From positions 43,348-107,347 of the forward strand of contig JAKQEQ010000153.1 of assembly GCA_029556545.1 (NCBI GenBank): DNA of 64,000 bases. The letters are read 5' to 3'. Numbering within the stretch: the stretch's first letter is position 1; each line of letters starts with the position of its first letter. Shown here piece after piece: positions 2,715-24,758 of this stretch. The translations under genes and the position numbers were made by a program. Under the pieces are notes generated by a model. That model was not told the origin of the DNA. It made no database searches and saw only the letters and a program-made list of their open reading frames with translations. Source of the stretch: Candidatus Hydrogenedentota bacterium. GTDB lineage: Bacteria; Hydrogenedentota; Hydrogenedentia; Hydrogenedentales; JAGMZX01.

Positions 2715-3109
2715 ATGCTGGCTCTCCTGCTTCCCATTCCCTCGCCACAGTATAAGCACAATGGTCGATTATGACAAGTATCCTGTTTCCGGCGGGCGCG
2801 CCCCCGTCAAAGACCATGGAAACCGAGGAGCGAGGCGGCCCGCGACGACGTCCGCGCGGCGGAAACGCAATCGGGCCCGCTTGGGACCGACGCGCCGAAG
2901 GGGGTTTGGCGTCAGGTACGGTTCTCTTTCCCGCACGGCGTCGTTCGCAGGCCGCCACTATGGCAAAGAGAGCAAGCGTTATGCCAAGAGGGCGCGTCCC
3001 GCGAGAAGGCCGTACAATGCGGGCGTTGAGGAGGTGGGGGAAACAAGACGCCTCCCCGCCGGTCGTCAAATCGCCTGTTTTCCGGCAGTTTCCGCCAGTG
3101 GTTCGGCGG

Positions 3110-10821: not shown

Positions 10822-13800
10822 GTGCAACCTGTCTTACACTATCTGCGCGAGATCGAAGAGCAACTCGCCACCGGGCTCGCGACGGAGCATTCGCACCGCG
10901 CCGCATTGCAGCGTCTGGTCCATGCGCTCGGGAAAGACGTGCTCGCCACCAACGAGCCCGCGCGCACGGCCTGCGGCGCGCCCGATTACATCGTTACCCG
11001 CGCGGGAACCATCATCGGTTACATCGAGGCGAAGGACCTCGGGGCGGACCTGAACCAGGTCGAGCGGAGCGAACAACTGGCCCGCTACCTCGACGGACTG
11101 CCCAACCTCATACTCACCGACTATCTCGAATTTCGCTTGTACCACGGCGGGCGCTTCGCGATGGATGCGCGCCTGGCGCGTCTAGACGCCAAGGGCGCGC
11201 TGTGCCCGGACGCAACGGGGCCGGTGGCGCTTGCACGGCTCTTCGACAGCTTCTTCACCGCCGCACCACCGCCCATGGCCACGCCGCAGAACCTCGCGCA
11301 GCGGATGGCGGCCACCGCGCGCCTTCTCTGCGAAGTCATCGGCCGCGTGCTCGAGGATGAGAGCGAGACGGGCGGGCTGCACGGTCAATTGGAGGCGTTT
11401 CGGCGCGTGCTGCTGCACGAACTCGAAGCGGCGCAGTTCGCCGACATGTACGCGCAGACCATCTGCTACGGCCTCTTCGCCGCACGGTGCAACCACAAGG
11501 ACGCGCGCGGGCCGTTCACGCGCGAGGCGGCGGTTCATGAGCTTCCCGAGACGAATCCCTTTCTCCGGCAGATGTTCGGGCATATCGCGGGCCCGGAACT
11601 CGACACGCGCCTCGCGTGGGCCGTCGATCAACTGGCCCAGATGCTCGACCGCGCCGACATGGGCGAGATTCTGCGCGATTTCGGGCGTCGCACGCGCCAG
11701 GAAGACCCGGTGGTCCATTTCTACGAGACCTTTCTCGCGGCTTATGACCCGAGCCTGCGCGAGACCCGCGGGGTGTATTACACGCCCGAGCCGGTTGTCT
11801 CCTACATCGTACGGTCCGTCGACGGCATCCTGAAGCGGGACTTCGGCATCGAGGACGGCCTCGCGGCGACAGACAAGGTTCCGGTCTACGAGACGCATGT
11901 CCCCAACGGCAGCAGGACCTCGAAGGCCGTGCGCAAGAAGGTGGGCGAGGTCCACAAAGTCTTGATTCTTGATCCCGCCGCCGGCACGGGCACGTTCCTG
12001 CACGGCGTGGTGGACCAGATTCACGAAACCGTCGTGACCAAGCGCGGCAAGGGCATCTGGAACGGCTACGTCTCCGAGCATCTCCTGCCGCGTCTCTTCG
12101 GCTTTGAACTGCTCATGGCGCCTTATGCCGTCGCCCACATGAAACTGGGCATACAACTCGCCGAAACCGGCTACGCCTTCCAGAGTGGCGAGCGGCTGCG
12201 GGTCTACCTGACCAACACGCTCGAAGAGGCGTTTGAACTGGGCGGCCTGCCGCTCTTCGCGCATATTATCGCGGAAGAGGCCAACGCCGCCGGCCGCGTC
12301 AAGACACGGCATCCAGTCATGGTCGTGCTGGGCAACCCGCCGTATTCGGGCCACTCGGCGAACAAGGGCGCGTGGATCGCACACCTGCTACGCGGCACGG
12401 ATACGACCTCCGGCGAACGCACCGGGAACTACTTCGAGGTGGACGGGCAACCGCTCGGTGAGCGTAACCCGAAGTGGCTCAACGACGACTACGTGAAATT
12501 CATCCGCTTCGCCCAATGGCGCATCGAGCGAACCGGTTACGGCATTCTCGCGTTCATCAGCAATCACAGCTACCTCGACAACCCGACTTTCCGGGGCATG
12601 CGGCAGAGCCTCATGGAGACCTTCGACGACATCTACCTCCTCGACCTGCACGGCAACGCGAAGAAGAAGGAGGTCGCGCCGGACGGTTCGAAGGACGAGA
12701 ACGTATTCGATATCCAGCAGGGCGTGGCCATCGGCATCTTCGTCAAGCGCAAGAACGGCCCGAAGCGCCGGCTTGCGCTGGTGCGCCATGCGGACTTGTG
12801 GGGCGCGCGGGAGCTCTATGAGCGAACCCCTGACGGCGCGCCACGCCTCGTCGGCGGCAAGCACCGGGCGCTATACGATAGCAACGTGAAATCGACCAAG
12901 TGGACGCGGCTCAAGCCGGAAAGCCCCTTCTACCTGTTCGTGCCGCAAGATACGAAGCGGCTCGAGGAATACAAGGCCGGCCGGAGCATCCCCAAACTGA
13001 TGCCGGTGAATTGCGTGGGCATCGTCACCGCGCGCGACCACCTGACCATTCGATGGAGCGCCGACGAGGTATGGAAGACTGTGCGGGAATTCGCAGGTCT
13101 CCCCCCCGAGACGGCACGGGAACGATTTCGGCTTGGACCGGACGCACGGGACTGGAAGGTCCATCTGGCGCAAGCGTCCGTTCGGGAGTCCGGCCCGACA
13201 CGGGACCATCTGCGACGCATACTCTACCGGCCTTTCGACGTGCGCTGGACCTACTACACCGCCCAGTCGCGCGGTTTCCTGTGCAAGCCGCGCGGCAAGG
13301 TCATGCGCCACATGATCGAGGGCGAGAATCTGGGGTTGTCCACCACGCGCTCGATAGAGATTGGGCGCGGCTGGGAACACGTTTTCTGCACGCGCGAAAT
13401 GATCCAGCATCATACGGTATCAATTAAAGAGGTGAATTACCTTTTCCCGCTCTATCTCTACCCGAAGAACAGGGACGAGGTGGACGACCTCGAGGAGTGG
13501 GGCGCGCGCGAGGCGGCGGCGGAGTACGGCGGCCGGCGCAGGCCGAATCTGGACCCGACGCTTATGGACGAATTGGCGCGGCGGCTGAAGATGGCCTTCA
13601 TCGAGGCCGGGACAGGCGATCTGACGAAGACCTTCGGGCCGGAGAACGTGTTCCATTACGTGTACGCCGTCCTCCATTCACCGTCTTATCGCGCGCGCTA
13701 TGCCGAGTTTCTCAAGCGCGATTTTCCGCGCGTCCCTTTCACGTCGAAGGCGAGACTGTTTCGGGCGCTCTGCGCGCACGGCGCGCGCCTCGTACAGTTG

Positions 13801-20113: not shown

Positions 20114-20542
20114 CTACATCAGCCGCTCGAGCGCCTCGCGCAACGCGGGGGAAATTTCCACGGGTTCGCCGGTCGCGCGGTTGATCCACACCACGATCGA
20201 GCGCGCGTCCGCCACGAGCGTATCCGTCCCATCGAGAAAGAGGCCGTGCTCGAAGTGGAAGGACCGGCGGCTTATCTTGCCGACCCGCGTTCCCACTTCG
20301 ATAGTCGCGGGGTGTTGCACCGGACGGCGGAAATTGCACGTGACCGAGGCGAGCACCGGGCCCTCCGCGGCATGGAGCCAGTCGCCGTCGGGCGCGAGCG
20401 ACCGGAACACTTGAATCCGGCCGATTTCGAGGTACGTGACGTACTTCGCGTTGTTGACGTGATGGTAGGCGTCCATGTCGCTCCAGCGCACGGGCACGGA
20501 CACCCAATCCCGGAATTCCCGGCGGTCCACAGCGGGCTTCAT
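20114..20542 (-). CDS. Acyl-CoA thioesterase (hotdog fold, YbgC/4HBT type)
   Basis: …VRWSDMDAYHHVNNAKYVTYLEIGR… is a classic 4HBT hotdog signature. Start taken at the internal Met (MKPAVD); the ORF extends to 20593. Confidence 0.7.
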   Translation of the reverse strand: MKPAVDRREFRDWVSVPVRWSDMDAYHHVNNAKYVTYLEIGRIQVFRSLAPDGDWLHAAEGPVLASVTCNFRRPVQHPATIEVGTRVGKISRRSFHFEHGLFLDGTDTLVADARSIVVWINRATGEPVEISPALREALERLM

Positions 20543-20622
20543 GAGCGGTTTTGCCCTCCCAAGTCGCTCGCGTATACTGGGCGCGCGGGCCACGGGTTTT
20601 CAAGCAAGAGGCGAGGACACGC

Positions 20623-21111
20623 ATGCAGGAACACCACGAACGACCCTCCTGGGACGACTACTTCATGGAAGTGGCGCATACGATCGCGAAGCGCGCCACC
20701 TGCGATCGGGGACGCAGCGGCTGCGTCATCGCGCGGGACCGGCAACTGCTCGTCACGGGCTACGTCGGCTCGCCGATGGGCTTCGCCCATTGCGACGAAG
20801 TGGGCCATCAACTCAAGCAGGTCGTCCACGAGGACGGCACGACGACCACCCATTGCGTGCGGACCGTGCACGCCGAACAGAACGCGATCTGCCAGGCCGC
20901 GAAACTGGGCGTGAGCATCCGCGGCGCGACCTTGTACTGCCGCATGACGCCCTGCCGCGTGTGCGCCATGCTGATCATCAACTGCGGAATCGCGCGCGTG
21001 GTGTGCGAACGCCGCTACCACGCCGGGGCGGAGTCCGAGGCCATGTTCCAGCAGGCGGGCGTCCAACTCGAATACAAATGCGACGAAGTCCAGCAATACG
21101 ATAACCAGTAG
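20623..21111 (+). CDS. dCMP / cytidine-deoxycytidylate deaminase (ComEB-like)
   Basis: Zinc-binding motifs H(A)E (…CVRTVHAEQNAI…) and PCxxC (…TPCRVCAMLI…). ATG at 20623 within ORF 20551..21111. Confidence 0.8.
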   Translation: MQEHHERPSWDDYFMEVAHTIAKRATCDRGRSGCVIARDRQLLVTGYVGSPMGFAHCDEVGHQLKQVVHEDGTTTTHCVRTVHAEQNAICQAAKLGVSIRGATLYCRMTPCRVCAMLIINCGIARVVCERRYHAGAESEAMFQQAGVQLEYKCDEVQQYDNQ

Positions 21112-21182
21112 CGGGCCATTCGTGTTCGATCCGGAAGCATTTCAGGTCCTCACCGCACACGCCGTGGCAAGCGCGCAAGTGT

Positions 21183-21680
21183 TTCTGGATTCCCGCTTGC
21201 GCGGGAATGACGGAGGAGGCGAACGCGGCCTGCCACATCGTCATTCCCGCGAAAGAGTCTGTCGATTTAGGTCGCCTTGGCGCAAGCGGAGACCGACGGC
21301 GGCTATTCCATCAGTGACCTTGGGTGAACGCAATCCATTTAGCCCGCCTTGGCGGGCTCTTCTTTGCACCCGCATTTATGCGGGGTGAAACGGGGACCTC
21401 ATATACAGACAAGCGCGCTTCAGCGCGGCTTTTTCAACGGCTTCCGCATTGTCTCCACGCTGAAGCGGCTCGGCAAGCGGCGCTGAAGCGCCCTCTTCGC
21501 GAAAGTAACAGCCTATTACACCCCGCGTGAACGCGGGTGCAAAGAGGAGCCGCGCTAAAGCGCGCTGACAAGTCCAGCACGCTCTTTGGAAAGAAACATG
21601 GTGGGTCATGGGCACTTATTCTCGCGTTTTTCAGCCCGTCTCCGATTAAATCGACAGACCCGAAAGCGGGAATCCAGAAG
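21183..21680. repeat. Non-coding island with nested inverted repeats (possible mobile-element remnant or structured RNA)
   Basis: Read directly. Outer arms TTCTGGATTCCCGC (21185-21198) and ATTCCCGCGAAAGAGTCTGTCGATTTA (21243-21269) are mirrored by TAAATCGACAGACCCGAAAGCGGGAATCCAGAA (21647-21680). Inner pair GCTCTTCTTTGCACCCGCATTTATGCGGGGTG (21355-21386) matches the inverse GCACCCCGCGTGAACGCGGGTGCAAAGAGGAGC (21519-21550). Several CTTCAGCG/CGCTGAAG mini-palindromes lie between. No convincing ORF. Confidence 0.5.
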
Positions 21681-21776
21681 ACATGAAATATGCGCCTTAA
21701 CCGAACCCGCATGTTGGAACCTCCCTCGCGGGGCCGCTACAATTCAGGAACGACCGACGCATAGGAAACCCCCGCG

Positions 21777-24758
21777 TTGAACCCGGAAGAAAACGGCGCG
21801 CGCCTCACCGCGGCGCAATGGACCTTGCTGGCGTGCATCGTGCTTGTCGGCGCCGCGCTGCGTCTCTATGACCTCGGCGGGCAGAGCCTCTGGTACGACG
21901 AAGGGGCGACCCTCCACCACACGCGTTACGTCGATTGCCGCGGCTCGCTATTCGACATCACGAAGACGACCGAGCCGCCGATGATCACCGTGCTCGCCTT
22001 CCTCTGGCTGCGCCTCCTCGACGCCGTAGCGGACACGCCGATGATTTCCGCTACGAACGACCTTCTGATTCGCCTGTTGCCGTGCCTCTTCGGCGTCTTG
22101 TGCATCCCGCTCGTGTTCGCGGCGGCGCGCGCGTTGCTTCGACGCGCGGACGCCGCTCTCATCGCGGCGTTTCTCTATGCCATCGCCCCGTTCCACATTT
22201 ACTATGCCCAGGAACTGCGCGTATACACGGTCTACACCGCCCTGTCGCTGTGCGCGGTCTACTGTCTCGTAAAGGTCCTTGGAGAAGACCCTCACCCTGA
22301 CCCTCTCCCCGAGGGAGAGGGATCAGGAAAGCGGTACTGGGTCGGCCTGGTTCTCACGGAAGCCCTTCTCCTCTATACCCATTTCATCGCCGTCTGGACC
22401 TTGTTCCTCTTCAACGTCTATTTCGTGTGCACGTTGCCGTGGCAGCGCCGCCGGTTCTGGAAATGGACGGCGTCGCAAGCGGCGGCGGGGCTGTTGGCGC
22501 TGCCCGCGCTGTGGCACCTGTTCAACGCGCTCGATCGCGTGCGCCGCATCGAGATCGCCTGGTACCCCGCGCCGACCTGGAAGACGGGCCTCATCACGTT
22601 CAAGGCGTTCTTCGCGGGCTACAGCTTCAACATATGGGCGTATTGGGCGCTCTTCGCGCTGGCCGCCTTGTTCTTCGCAATCGGTCTCACGCTGCTCGCG
22701 GCGCGACGAGGCCGGGCCGCCCTGCTTACGGCGTTGCTGGCGATCGTACCCATTGCCGCCAACATCCTCATCTGGAAAGACCGGCACTTCTCGTTCTACG
22801 AGCATCGTCCGTTCATCTTTTCCGGCGCCGTCGCCCTGTTCGCGATCGCCTACGCACTGGCGGCGCTGCGTCCCCGCGCCCTGCGCATCGGCGCGCTGGT
22901 CCTGTTTGCCGTGCTCACCGCGCCGCACCTGCGCGAACTCTACGCCCACCGGGTGCATCCCATCGAGACGCACCGACTCGCCGTGTACGACAAGAGCGAT
23001 TTCCGCTCCGCGGCCGCGTACCTGCGCGACCATTTCGAGGAAGGCGATCTGATTTGCCACGCGAACCATTTCACGATGTACTCGATGCGCCACTACCTCG
23101 ACCTCCCGCAAACCCGCGTCGGCGCGCACGATTGGGACTGGGACGTGATGGCCAACAGCCACGGCAACCCGGCGCTCGCCGAGGCGCATGACCTCATGCC
23201 TGTGCGCGTCGAGGAGGCGACCCGCGACGCCCGCCGCGTCTGGTTCATCGAGTCGCACGGCCTGACTTTCGAGTACAAGCCGCACACCGAGCCGGTCCGC
23301 GCATGGTTCGAAACCAACTTCCGCCGCGTGGACCATCAGGAATTCTTCGGCCTCACCGCCACGTGTTACGCGCGCTATGACGGCCCGCCGCCACGCATGC
23401 CCAATGTCGTCTTCCTGCTGCTCGACACCGTGCGGGCGGATCGCCTCGGCGCGACGCGCAACGGCCTGCCCGTGACGCCGCACCTCGACGCCTTCGCCGA
23501 TGAGGCCGTGGTGTTCGCGAACACGGTGACGCCCTGCAGTTGGACGAAGCCCGCCATGGCCTCGATTTTCACGGCCCGCTACGTGGACGCCCATGGCGTT
23601 TTCTACAGCGCGCGCATCGAGGACCCGGACCACCCGGTCAGCGACGTGTTGCCGGACGAATTCGAGACGATGGCCGAGTTCCTCGCGCGCCACGGCTACG
23701 ACACCTTCGCCGTGCAAACCAACGCGAACCTGACCCGCGCCGCGGGTTTCGCCCAAGGCTTCGACGAGGGGCGCTACCTCTTCCAGAACGGCTGGCGCGC
23801 GGACTGGGTGACGGGCCAGGCGCTTCACACGCTCGATGTGTTGCGCGAGCCCTTCTTCGCCTACTGCCACTACATGGACCCCCACGCGCCTTACGACCCG
23901 CCCGAGACGCACCGCGACGTCTTCGGACCCGAGCCGGACCTCACCGAACAGGACCGCGCCCTTCTCGACAACGACACGTTCATGGCCTATTGCCTCGACC
24001 GCGTAAAGGTTGCGCTCGGCCTCGAAGACGGGCACGCGATGCCCGAGTTCTCGCCACAAGGCAAGGAGTACGTACGCCAACGCTACGACAGCGAAATCCG
24101 CTACATGGACGACGAACTCGGCCCGCTTCTCGATCGCGTCCGCGCGAAATACCCGCACAGCGTCATCATCATTGCATCGGACCACGGCGAGGAATTCTGG
24201 GAACGCGGCGGCATGGGCCACGGCGCGACGCTTCACCGAGAGCAACTGCGCGTCCCGCTGCTCATCCGCGCCCCGGGACTCCCCCGCGGCCGCGTCGAGA
24301 CGCCCGCCGAACTGCTCGACATCCTGCCGACCGTCGCCCGGCTTATCGGCGCCGACGCCGACCCCGCGTGGCAGGGCAAAGACCTCTTCCGCGCCGACGC
24401 CGTCCATGAACCGCGTTTCTCGCGCACCTACGGGCCCTGGCCGGAACTCCGTGTTGACGCCGAGGCCGTCCTCGACGGCGGCGCGAAGCTGATCCGCGAC
24501 AATACGCACGAACAGACGCGGCTCTACGACCTCGAAACCGACCCTGGCGAACATAACGACCTCGCCCCCGATCAACCGGAACGCGCGCAGGCGCTTACAT
24601 CGACGCTCGACGATCACCGCCGCAAAAACGAGAAACGCCGCGGCGCGGTCGCCCAGCAAGAGACGCGCCTCGACGACGAAACCCGCGCCATGCTCGACGC
24701 CATGGGATACGTGGATTCCACAAGCCATCCCGCCCAAACGGATACGAACAATCGGTAA
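21777..24758 (+). CDS. Fusion protein: N-terminal GT-C glycosyltransferase (GT39/ArnT/PMT-like) plus C-terminal sulfatase-family (alkaline phosphatase superfamily) domain
   Basis: 993 aa. The N-terminal ~500 aa have ~11 TM helices with a DE motif in the first extracytoplasmic loop (…SLWYDEGATLHH…), typical of ArnT/PMT. The C-terminal ~480 aa carry metal and substrate motifs (…VVFLLLDTVRADRLG…, …HYMDPHAPYDPPE…, …IIIASDHGEEFWERGG…). The canonical C/S-x-P-x-R formylglycine motif is absent (TPCSWTKP), so this is probably not a true sulfatase. TTG start with AGGAAA 9 nt upstream. Confidence 0.65.
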   Translation: MNPEENGARLTAAQWTLLACIVLVGAALRLYDLGGQSLWYDEGATLHHTRYVDCRGSLFDITKTTEPPMITVLAFLWLRLLDAVADTPMISATNDLLIRLLPCLFGVLCIPLVFAAARALLRRADAALIAAFLYAIAPFHIYYAQELRVYTVYTALSLCAVYCLVKVLGEDPHPDPLPEGEGSGKRYWVGLVLTEALLLYTHFIAVWTLFLFNVYFVCTLPWQRRRFWKWTASQAAAGLLALPALWHLFNALDRVRRIEIAWYPAPTWKTGLITFKAFFAGYSFNIWAYWALFALAALFFAIGLTLLAARRGRAALLTALLAIVPIAANILIWKDRHFSFYEHRPFIFSGAVALFAIAYALAALRPRALRIGALVLFAVLTAPHLRELYAHRVHPIETHRLAVYDKSDFRSAAAYLRDHFEEGDLICHANHFTMYSMRHYLDLPQTRVGAHDWDWDVMANSHGNPALAEAHDLMPVRVEEATRDARRVWFIESHGLTFEYKPHTEPVRAWFETNFRRVDHQEFFGLTATCYARYDGPPPRMPNVVFLLLDTVRADRLGATRNGLPVTPHLDAFADEAVVFANTVTPCSWTKPAMASIFTARYVDAHGVFYSARIEDPDHPVSDVLPDEFETMAEFLARHGYDTFAVQTNANLTRAAGFAQGFDEGRYLFQNGWRADWVTGQALHTLDVLREPFFAYCHYMDPHAPYDPPETHRDVFGPEPDLTEQDRALLDNDTFMAYCLDRVKVALGLEDGHAMPEFSPQGKEYVRQRYDSEIRYMDDELGPLLDRVRAKYPHSVIIIASDHGEEFWERGGMGHGATLHREQLRVPLLIRAPGLPRGRVETPAELLDILPTVARLIGADADPAWQGKDLFRADAVHEPRFSRTYGPWPELRVDAEAVLDGGAKLIRDNTHEQTRLYDLETDPGEHNDLAPDQPERAQALTSTLDDHRRKNEKRRGAVAQQETRLDDETRAMLDAMGYVDSTSHPAQTDTNNR

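Follow-up and report, generated by a model that had tools for sequence, protein, structure and literature searches.

A non-coding island in the window, the whole 64,000-nt stretch of DNA analyzed here (contig JAKQEQ010000153.1 of the Candidatus Hydrogenedentota assembly GCA_029556545.1, positions 43,348 to 107,347), very probably consists of two nested non-autonomous transposable repeats that are specific to this lineage and that occupy the junction of a deletion of ~8.8 kb. The island is located after the stop codon (TAG, 21109–21111) of a dCMP deaminase gene and before the start of a GT-C/sulfatase fusion gene (GT-C of the PMT_2 type; 993 aa; TTG start at 21777). The outer repeat, M1, carries a doublet of inverted hairpins which, as judged from sequence, belong to a described family, the NTS/Ssn-related motifs (NTS, Neisseria Transformation Sequence; SRM, Ssn-related motif). 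The inner repeat, M2, is located in the loop of the second of these hairpins. An initial annotation of the window had favored a mobile element, possibly nested, and that reading was supported by sibling copies with target-site duplications (TSDs), by a multi-copy core, by the lack of an Rfam match, and by the absence of the island from orthologous loci. Coordinates of all features are collected in Table 1, and loci and contigs compared with the window are labeled with L-numbers (L001, L047, etc.).

The search for further copies with TSDs was positive for the outer repeat. When positions 21255–21665 were removed, the window aligned with M1 siblings from 21117 (CATTCGTG...) to 21713 (...CGCATG). 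The siblings in L047 and L069/L083 were 198 bp long, aligned with the M2-free window from end to end, had the ends CATTCGTGGTCGGYTAAG ... CTYAACCGAACACGAATG, and bore perfect 10-bp TSDs (CTTTTTGGTG and GACGAGAGAG). The window M1 was ~186 bp and non-coding, and its terminal inverted repeats (TIRs; CATTCGTGTTCG.../...CGAACCCGCATG) matched those of the siblings.

The hairpins of M1 were exact examples of a published motif. The NTS, CGTCATTCCCGCGMAVGCGGGAATCYRG, forms a hairpin and encompasses the dRS3 sequence (ATTCCC-N8-GGGAAT) (PMC11893778, Nat Commun 2025;16:2388). NTS-1 had zero mismatches to this consensus, including the oriented flanks CGTC... and ...CYRG, and its dRS3 pattern (21189–21208) was paired in both DNA and RNA folds. 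NTS-2 was split by M2; removing M2 together with one copy of GAAA gave a perfect NTS, CGTCATTCCCGCGAAAGCGGGAATCCAG, identical to the intact 28-mer of L069/L083 (zero mismatches). The arrangement of a reverse NTS, ~26 nt, and a forward NTS also occurred in L047, L069, and L083, and with wider spacing in L045 and L130; the left outer arm was found again in L047, L069/L083, L130, and L045. There were ~6 NTS doublets in ~1 Mb of contigs, and one in the window; those outside the window included L045, L047, L069/L083, and L130. The 73-nt doublet of the window aligned at 40 or more places in each of two Neisseria gonorrhoeae records and also matched Azospirillum, sphingomonads, Cupriavidus, and others. 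The 20-mer ATTCCCGCGAAAGCGGGAAT, the same as that of the window, is printed in an N. gonorrhoeae sequence.

Siblings of M2 with the same ends and lengths of 406–410 bp were found in other contexts in L015, L024, and L074/L092, and were 81–85% identical to the window copy over 330–420 bp. The M2 copies of L076 and L088 ended at contig ends, and those of L039/L077 lacked the centre. Two of the four complete copies, those of the window (GAAA) and of L074 (ATTC), were flanked by a 4-bp duplication. The plasmid collection that was searched for M2 gave no match. Two details of the initial annotation were revised by these comparisons. The element had been called decayed; it is not very much so, and M2 matches its siblings in size. 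The right outer arm had been described as the left arm with ~45 bp deleted; a better account is that M2 inserted asymmetrically, into the second hairpin of the M1 doublet, so that an entire NTS and the doublet spacer remain on the left.

All of the repeats named in that annotation were present at, or a few bases off, the positions given for them. A repeat search found the outer arms as two pairs, 21183–21201/21661–21679 (19 nt, 95% complementary) and 21243–21269/21647–21673 (27 nt, 81% complementary), the inner hairpin pair at 21355–21390/21516–21551 (36 nt, 86% complementary), and mini-palindromes CGCTGAAGCG at 21458, 21481, and 21553. Two additional inverted pairs were 21412–21430/21548–21566 (95% complementary) and 21412–21447/21459–21494 (75% complementary). 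The symmetry extended beyond the limits first described, out to 21117–21137/21696–21713.

Comparison with relatives placed the island at a site of gene loss. The window sequence is part of the JGI contig Ga0116237_10000375 (anaerobic-digester metagenome); identical or near-identical copies exist in other samples and in the metagenome-assembled genome (MAG) GCA_035342535.1, and the flanking proteins and their closest homologues were labeled Candidatus Hydrogenedentes. GT-C orthologues at 54–76% identity lacked the island and were preceded, at a distance of ~100 nt, by a divergent DUF72 gene. In the closest relatives (dCMP deaminase 92–93% identical; e.g., contig JAGMZX010000001.1 of GCA_018005585.1) both genes were on one contig, parted by 8.8 kb with about eight genes (L145/L012: JAGMZX010000001.1, 67733–76533): AstE/AspA-like, RimK, RimB-like, two small open reading frames (ORFs; one DUF2442), 2-oxoacid dehydrogenase E1, YacP, and DUF72. 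Three or more related genomes kept this block. The 8.8-kb segment was not found elsewhere in the window, and the relatives had no element at either position (deaminase side or GT-C side). Nucleotide homology to the relatives stopped at 21112 and restarted within the GT-C gene, or, at finer scale, at GTTGGAACC (21713/21714), in a stretch with a conserved promoter-like −35/−10 pair; the lineage-specific DNA, 21113–21712, sat at the exact site of the relatives' 8.8 kb. The comparison showed that the island is not ancestral to the locus. With either parsing of M2, the composite 21117–21713 covered all but 4 nt of the lineage-specific DNA.

The window M1 had unrelated flanks, AGTAGCGGGC on the left (containing the stop codon) and TTGGAACCTC on the right (a conserved −35 region). 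Its missing duplication, together with the ~8 genes that relatives hold at the island site, points to an element-associated deletion. The elements would have entered the lineage first and the 8.8 kb would have been lost afterwards, by recombination between two M1 copies flanking the segment or by an intramolecular transposition giving an adjacent deletion; either route leaves one element with unrelated flanks. The gene order upstream of the thioesterase gene also differed, being PolA-Rho-RGL11 in the relatives and ilvB-SurE-DedA in the window.

Among near-identical strains no presence/absence polymorphism of the island was seen. L001, L003, and L149 were identical to the window. Over >13 kb, L002 (GCA_035342535.1) differed from the window only by 11 substitutions and a 1-nt deletion, which all fell in one 117-bp tract; this tract was 116/116 identical to the paralogous copy L024 and had flanks that were 100% window-like. 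The tract arose either through gene conversion among copies or through an assembly that is chimeric at the repeat. In both cases, its match to L024 is a sign that this organism and an L024-type copy occur together. Inversion of the central segment in L002 and local hypermutation of the centre were rejected, since the differences were point changes identical to L024. Elsewhere in L002, the alignment broke at 2960–3025 (window ~13033–13038), where L002 had ~66 extra bases, and a Type ISP restriction-modification gene (N6_Mtase + Type_ISP_C) was a single 1102-aa gene in L001 and two genes (757 + 365 aa) in L002.

Inside M2, two copies of a ~105-nt unit, each with three to four hairpins, formed an inverted doublet. 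Each unit began with hairpin A, which was joined by a conserved linker with CTTTG at its end to hairpin B (CACCCGC-N-TTYA-N-GCGGGGTG; its 3′ arm bore one extra G). There followed a variable segment of 22–30 nt, hairpin C (likewise with an extra G, then a T-rich run), and a half-hairpin GCTTYAGC. Both CTTTG in the linker and the extra G in B and C were conserved. When units 1 and 2 were aligned arm to arm, hairpins and linker were kept and stem differences were compensatory. Across an alignment of 58 diverse units, standard pairs filled 98.5% of pair cells (88.8% in shuffles), 91 cells had changes on both sides (27 in shuffles), none of 500 shuffles attained the observed score, and shifting the pairing partners abolished pairing. 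Hairpin B is constrained by the search pattern itself, which did not select the partner arms. In these arms compensatory variants were found (CACCCTGC/GCAGGGGTG, CCCCCGGC/GCCGGGGGG, CACCCGGC/GCCGGGGTG, and CACCCGTC/GACGGGGTG), which retained the linker and the extra G. Both G-U and A-C exceptions occurred, so neither strand could be assigned as RNA. The two 24-nt variable segments of the window had no match in the window or loci, and the idea that they are guide RNAs was rejected for lack of target-like matches there. In L038 (1860–1925) a 21-nt piece, GATGCTTCAGCGTCCTTTTCA, containing the GCTTCAGC hairpin motif, was repeated three times in tandem.

The core was dispersed over loci, element families, and phyla. 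The hairpin-B pattern CTTTGCACCCGC-N6-GCGGGGTG, which fits both inner hairpins, identified 79 loci in metagenome contigs and 48 loci in species-representative genomes, ~20 of which were unrelated (Rhodobacterales coding sequence and a few others). True matches came from Candidatus Sumerlaeota MAGs (~20 contigs of one and ~11 of another), an 'FCB group' MAG, a Candidatus Hydrogenedentota MAG, and many digester and sediment contigs; Sumerlaeota and Hydrogenedentota are separate phyla in the NCBI taxonomy. Many copies were at contig ends, as repeats break assemblies. A profile of the unit (nhmmer) matched at 189 places in ~1 Mb of contigs from Hydrogenedentota, Sumerlaeota, and the FCB group. In the window it matched exactly twice, and the core motifs had no further copy there. 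The non-redundant elements comprised 52 inverted doublets and 52 solo units. Three or more families that differ in their TIRs and in TSD length (10, 8, and ~4 bp) contained the same core. One contig labeled Candidatus Bathyarchaeia (L113) had the same core-unit sequence and flanks as the bacterial-type contig L087 (Ga0307380_10000041); L113 is probably mis-binned. The terminal repeat of family 1, CAGGAGAATCCAGAAGTCATGG (e.g., L037 and L101), resembled the 3′ half and flank of the window NTS, GCGGGAATCCAGAAGACATGAA (21664–21695), and a second GGTGGAATC motif lay just inside the right end of family 1; the element terminal repeats may be built from NTS-like half-sites.

Table 1. Features of the island and its surroundings in the window, and element families that contain the core
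Feature	Positions	Strand	Details
M1, left part	21117–21254	.	Outer non-autonomous element; left TIR CATTCGTGTTCGATCCGGAAG at 21117–21137
NTS-1	21185–21212	−	Reads CGTCATTCCCGCGCAAGCGGGAATCCAG; hairpin with dRS3 core ATTCCC-N8-GGGAAT
Doublet spacer	21213–21238	.	26 nt; loop between the inverted NTS hairpins
NTS-2, 5′ part	21239–21254	+	CGTCATTCCCGCGAAA
M2 target duplication, left copy	21251–21254		GAAA; end of NTS-2 5′ part
M2	21255–21661	.	407-bp palindromic non-autonomous element
M2 left TIR	21255–21270		GAGTCTGTCGATTTAG
Core unit 1	21341–21447	+	nhmmer match 21339–21432, E = 1.5e-21
Unit 1, hairpin A	21341–21358		
Unit 1, linker	21359–21366		CTTCTTTG
Unit 1, hairpin B	21367–21387		Extra G in 3′ arm
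Unit 1, variable segment	21388–21411		
Unit 1, hairpin C	21412–21430		Followed by T-run
Unit 1, half-hairpin D	21439–21447		
Terminator-like calls	21341–21358; 21414–21427		In core unit 1
L002 variant tract	21399–21515		117 bp; L002 11392–11508; holds all 12 differences
Centre of M2 palindrome symmetry	21448–21458	.	
Core unit 2	21459–21566	−	Inverted partner; nhmmer match 21568–21475, E = 1.5e-17
Unit 2, half-hairpin D′	21459–21466		
Unit 2, hairpin C′	21479–21494		
Unit 2, variable segment	21495–21518		
Unit 2, hairpin B′	21519–21539		
Unit 2, linker	21540–21547		
Unit 2, hairpin A′	21548–21566		
M2 right TIR	21646–21661		TTAAATCGACAGACCC; 14/16 complementary to left TIR
M2 target duplication, right copy	21662–21665		GAAA
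M1, right part	21662–21713	.	Right TIR CTTAACCGAACCCGCATG at 21696–21713
NTS-2, 3′ part	21666–21677		GCGGGAATCCAG
Promoter-like site of GT-C/sulfatase gene	21714–21743	+	TTGGAA, 18-nt spacer, TACAAT; promoter scan; outside the element
Family 1			Sumerlaeota AMR_MDS_1306 and Ga0116170/171 contigs; ends CAGGAGAATCCAGAAGTC ... GACTTTTGGATTCTCCTG; 297–528 bp; clean 10-bp TSDs, e.g., GTTTCAAACC, TGTCAGACCC, ATCTCTCCCC, GTTCCCCGAT, GTACAAAGTC; >8 copies
Family 3			L017, L029/L043, L047, L069/L083; ends GGGTGCAG...; 351–414 bp; 8-bp TSD
M2 family			Window, L015, L024, L074/L092; ends GGGTCTGTCGATTTAG ... CTAAATCGACAGACCC; 406–410 bp; ~4-bp TSD in 2/4
Ends of element families			CATTCGTGNTCGGNTAAG, GGGTCTGTCGATTTAG, CAGGAGAATCCAGAAGTC, GGGTGCAGNTCCGC

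The surroundings of the copies were not conserved. No conserved protein was found next to copies at ≥120 aa or ≥70 aa, the search yielding nothing but spurious ORFs on the repeat itself and a single coincidental DUF4160, and in a test of a terminator role there was no preferred orientation relative to neighboring genes as called by a crude gene caller. Viral contigs lacked the core, and their two matches to the TIR pattern were probably due to chance. Small DUF4160/DUF2442-type genes lay within ~1 kb of copies in L015 (1720–2005), L076 (5855–6140), L017/L054 (1886–2102), and L146 (5283–5480), and also within the relatives' 8.8-kb block. This proximity may be coincidence or a common preference for the same intergenic 'junk' regions.

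The signature of TIRs with fixed-length TSDs points to DDE-type transposases, and M1 and M2 would have been mobilized in trans by such enzymes encoded elsewhere. Several observations weigh against two nested transposable repeats. The window M1 had no target duplication, and the 4-bp TSD of M2 was missing from two of its four complete copies (L015 and L024). Short inverted repeats similar to SRM stems stood on both sides of each complete M2 copy, and in L077 the right end of M2 was followed by the same GCGGGAATCC half-stem; the true ends of M2 could lie further out, into the NTS half-stems, or M2 could move otherwise. Solo units in Sumerlaeales MAGs had sharp boundaries without TIR or TSD, and the core may spread by a different route, e.g., through a hairpin-specific enzyme. 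The window held only one copy each of M1 and M2, and the presence of siblings in the same genome is inferred from shared samples and the L002 tract. Finally, in ~1 Mb of loci no autonomous element was found, that is, no TIR pair 0.7–4 kb apart and no transposase with matching ends.

These same solo units and SRM-like half-stems favor an alternative that is possible but less than probable: the core units, and perhaps the whole of M2 in the NTS loop, would be REP/REPIN- or SRM-like hairpin repeats of single-stranded DNA (ssDNA), spread by a HUH RAYT-type or GIY-YIG Ssn-type protein, and the TIR/TSD elements would be mere vehicles for a captured doublet. In part this complements the nested transposable repeats. 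The NTS is bound and cut by SsnA, a GIY-YIG nuclease of family cd10448, only as ssDNA; SsnA limits transformation and tolerates arbitrary insertions at the NTS loop position, where M2 lies; NTS-like motifs flank ssnA homologues across many phyla, and dRS3 is reported as a recombinase target in Neisseria (PMC11893778). The inverted doublet architecture is similar to that of REPINs, the hairpins have a strand polarity, set by the conserved CTTTG linker on the 5′ side and by the additional G of the 3′ arms of B and C, and one core is found in three element families with different ends. On the other side, hairpins A–C misfit the published SRM pattern, and the clean fixed-length TSDs of families 1, 3, and M1 are typical of DDE transposition. 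No GIY-YIG candidate appeared in a crude motif scan of all ORFs of the window and loci, a motif search found no RAYT/Y1 HUH ORF, and there was no conserved ORF near any copy.

Conservation of the core across phyla, its covariation, its fixed linker, and its fixed extra base suggest that the hairpins are recognized in single-stranded form by some protein. A more specific proposal, which is speculative and rather unlikely, is that the three-hairpin core is a new recognition module for a hairpin-specific ssDNA enzyme (Ssn- or RAYT-like) that interacts with the NTS/Ssn system. Such an enzyme would be common to Hydrogenedentota, Sumerlaeota, and FCB-group bacteria. The position of M2 in an NTS loop would then be no accident, and, given the tolerance of SsnA for insertions in the loop, an NTS stem that closes over a self-folding insert of 400 nt would remain a substrate. 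If so, NTS-type and core-type hairpins would form one system controlling ssDNA processing (transformation, recombination, and deletion formation) in these candidate phyla.

It is very unlikely that the region encodes a large structured RNA without coding function, or that it serves the GT-C/sulfatase envelope locus as a cis-regulatory leader or terminator. The initial annotation had offered a structured RNA as its second option, and in a locus-specific form that option was not supported: both strands fold alike, Rfam gives no match, and the island is absent from orthologous loci. The region does lie directly upstream of the GT-C gene, its stems covary, and its predicted fold is very stable. 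For 21150–21720 the RNA fold of the plus strand reached −273.9 kcal/mol (−206 ± 6.7 in shuffles; z = −10.1), but that of the minus strand was about as strong (z = −8.9), and the DNA fold of 21117–21713 (z = −7.3) paired end to end. The equal folding of the strands indicates that the symmetry belongs to the DNA palindrome and not to a single transcript. Terminator-like hairpins were enriched (5 versus 1.6 expected), facing both directions. Rfam gave no match in the full 64-kb window at the gathering threshold and none for the island even at E ≤ 10, where 20900–22000 yielded three chance-level matches only (E 0.5–3.9), far under the gathering scores; a scan for tRNA and tmRNA found neither. The annotation's finding of no credible ORF held, in that the internal ORFs of 64–92 aa had no Pfam match and contained a 1-nt indel in the near-identical MAG (GCA_035342535.1). 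The ~100 nt upstream of the GT-C orthologues contain no island, the island of the window precedes the conserved promoter, and the same sequence occurs beside unrelated genes. Both GTTGGAACC and the −10-like box were kept in L010 and L011, relatives at 74–76% identity.

In place, the composite would probably be only a passive, strongly self-pairing spacer with bidirectional terminator-like hairpins, separating the deaminase gene from the GT-C promoter, which is intact and conserved. Should the genome encode an Ssn-type nuclease, it would have single-strand cleavage sites in the NTS hairpins. The genes adjoining the NTS doublet are those of the deaminase, the thioesterase, and GT-C. The GT-C promoter-like site directly adjoins the right end of M1. 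The sequence GTAGCGGGCC (21108–21117), in which the deaminase stop lies, recurs in inverted form as GGGCCGCTAC at 21731–21740 (10 nt, 90% complementary), 18 nt past the element's right end in the conserved promoter region, a match that may be due to chance. The thioesterase gene (20114–20593, minus strand) and the longest deaminase ORF (20551/20623–21111, plus strand) overlap head to head; with the deaminase start chosen by gene callers (ATG at 20623; 162 aa), a divergent promoter region of ~30–80 nt remains.

That the island is an inverton, an invertible promoter for phase variation of the envelope locus with the 36-nt arms 21355–21390/21516–21551 as recombination sites, is extremely improbable. 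Upstream of a surface-modification gene, a segment of 125 bp is indeed enclosed by inverted repeats, and the sole strain difference lies between the arms, but the L002 tract has the same orientation and its 12 point differences are identical to the paralogue. Moreover, the second orientation of 21391–21515 was not seen in L001–L003 or L149, the segment contained no promoter-like site, no recombinase gene was adjacent, and the arms are parts of a dispersed repeat. An idiosyncratic palindrome formed by inverted duplication or template switching at this site only has a negligible probability: it would fit the single copy in the 64-kb window and an extra left-arm hairpin made by fold-back synthesis, but full-length homologous copies in many other contexts and genomes already refute it. 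CRISPR, integron attC, retron, and replication origin were rejected (no periodic repeats, no nearby integrase or reverse transcriptase, and no supporting motif).

Explaining the island as nested mobile repeats guards against its mis-annotation as a regulatory RNA of the envelope-modification locus, and it provides a concrete instance of a repeat exactly at an 8.8-kb gene-loss junction. The same repeats break assemblies and gave rise to a paralogue-derived tract in a public MAG. Miniature inverted-repeat transposable elements (MITEs), REP-like hairpins, and the NTS/SRM motif are already described kinds. New are the exact NTS motif in candidate phyla, recognized here from its sequence and carried by a TIR/TSD element, which suggests a vehicle for spread of the motif; a hairpin core common to several element families and phyla that has no Rfam match; and the case of an element at a deletion junction. 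Full-text literature searches found neither the core sequence nor transposable elements in these phyla.

Large non-coding RNAs in Rfam (ROOL, GOLLD, OLE, and HEARO) resemble the island in length (~500 nt), very low folding energy, and covarying stems. In contrast to these, the island has no covariance-model match, is a palindrome at the DNA level with equal folding on both strands, and is dispersed with target duplications instead of being syntenic. REP/BIME/REPIN elements are paired with RAYT (IS200/IS605-type Y1) transposases. Like the core, they consist of short palindromes that are imperfect, carry an extra-helical base, and are conserved in their 5′ flank, occurring singly or as inverted doublets that form long hairpins in mosaic arrangements; REP/RAYT elements are also discussed in PMC11893778. 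The core differs in that no RAYT gene was found near copies, its units hold three to four different hairpins, and its doublets are carried inside TIR/TSD elements.

The window hairpins are like the NTS/dRS3/SRM repeats and NIME-type mosaics of Neisseria in inverted pairing, intergenic position, and neighboring repeats. The differences are that the host belongs to a candidate phylum (Hydrogenedentota/Sumerlaeota), that the doublet is cargo of an element with TIRs and a 10-bp TSD, that the motif appears to be low-copy, and that no cd10448 GIY-YIG (ssnA) gene was seen in the crude scan. Bacterial MITEs that fold into long hairpins include Correia/CREE (Neisseria), ERIC/IRU (enterobacteria), BOX/RUP (pneumococci), and Nezha (cyanobacteria). 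The elements described here share with them a length of 200–500 bp, the lack of an ORF, TIRs, fixed-length target duplications (in the M1 siblings and in families 1 and 3), intergenic and multi-copy occurrence, the breaking of assemblies, nested insertions, and modular internal hairpins as in BOX. No sequence similarity to these MITEs was found, and unlike them the elements have an internal core that is common to at least three families of different TIRs and TSDs, that also occurs free of TIRs, and that is kept across phyla.

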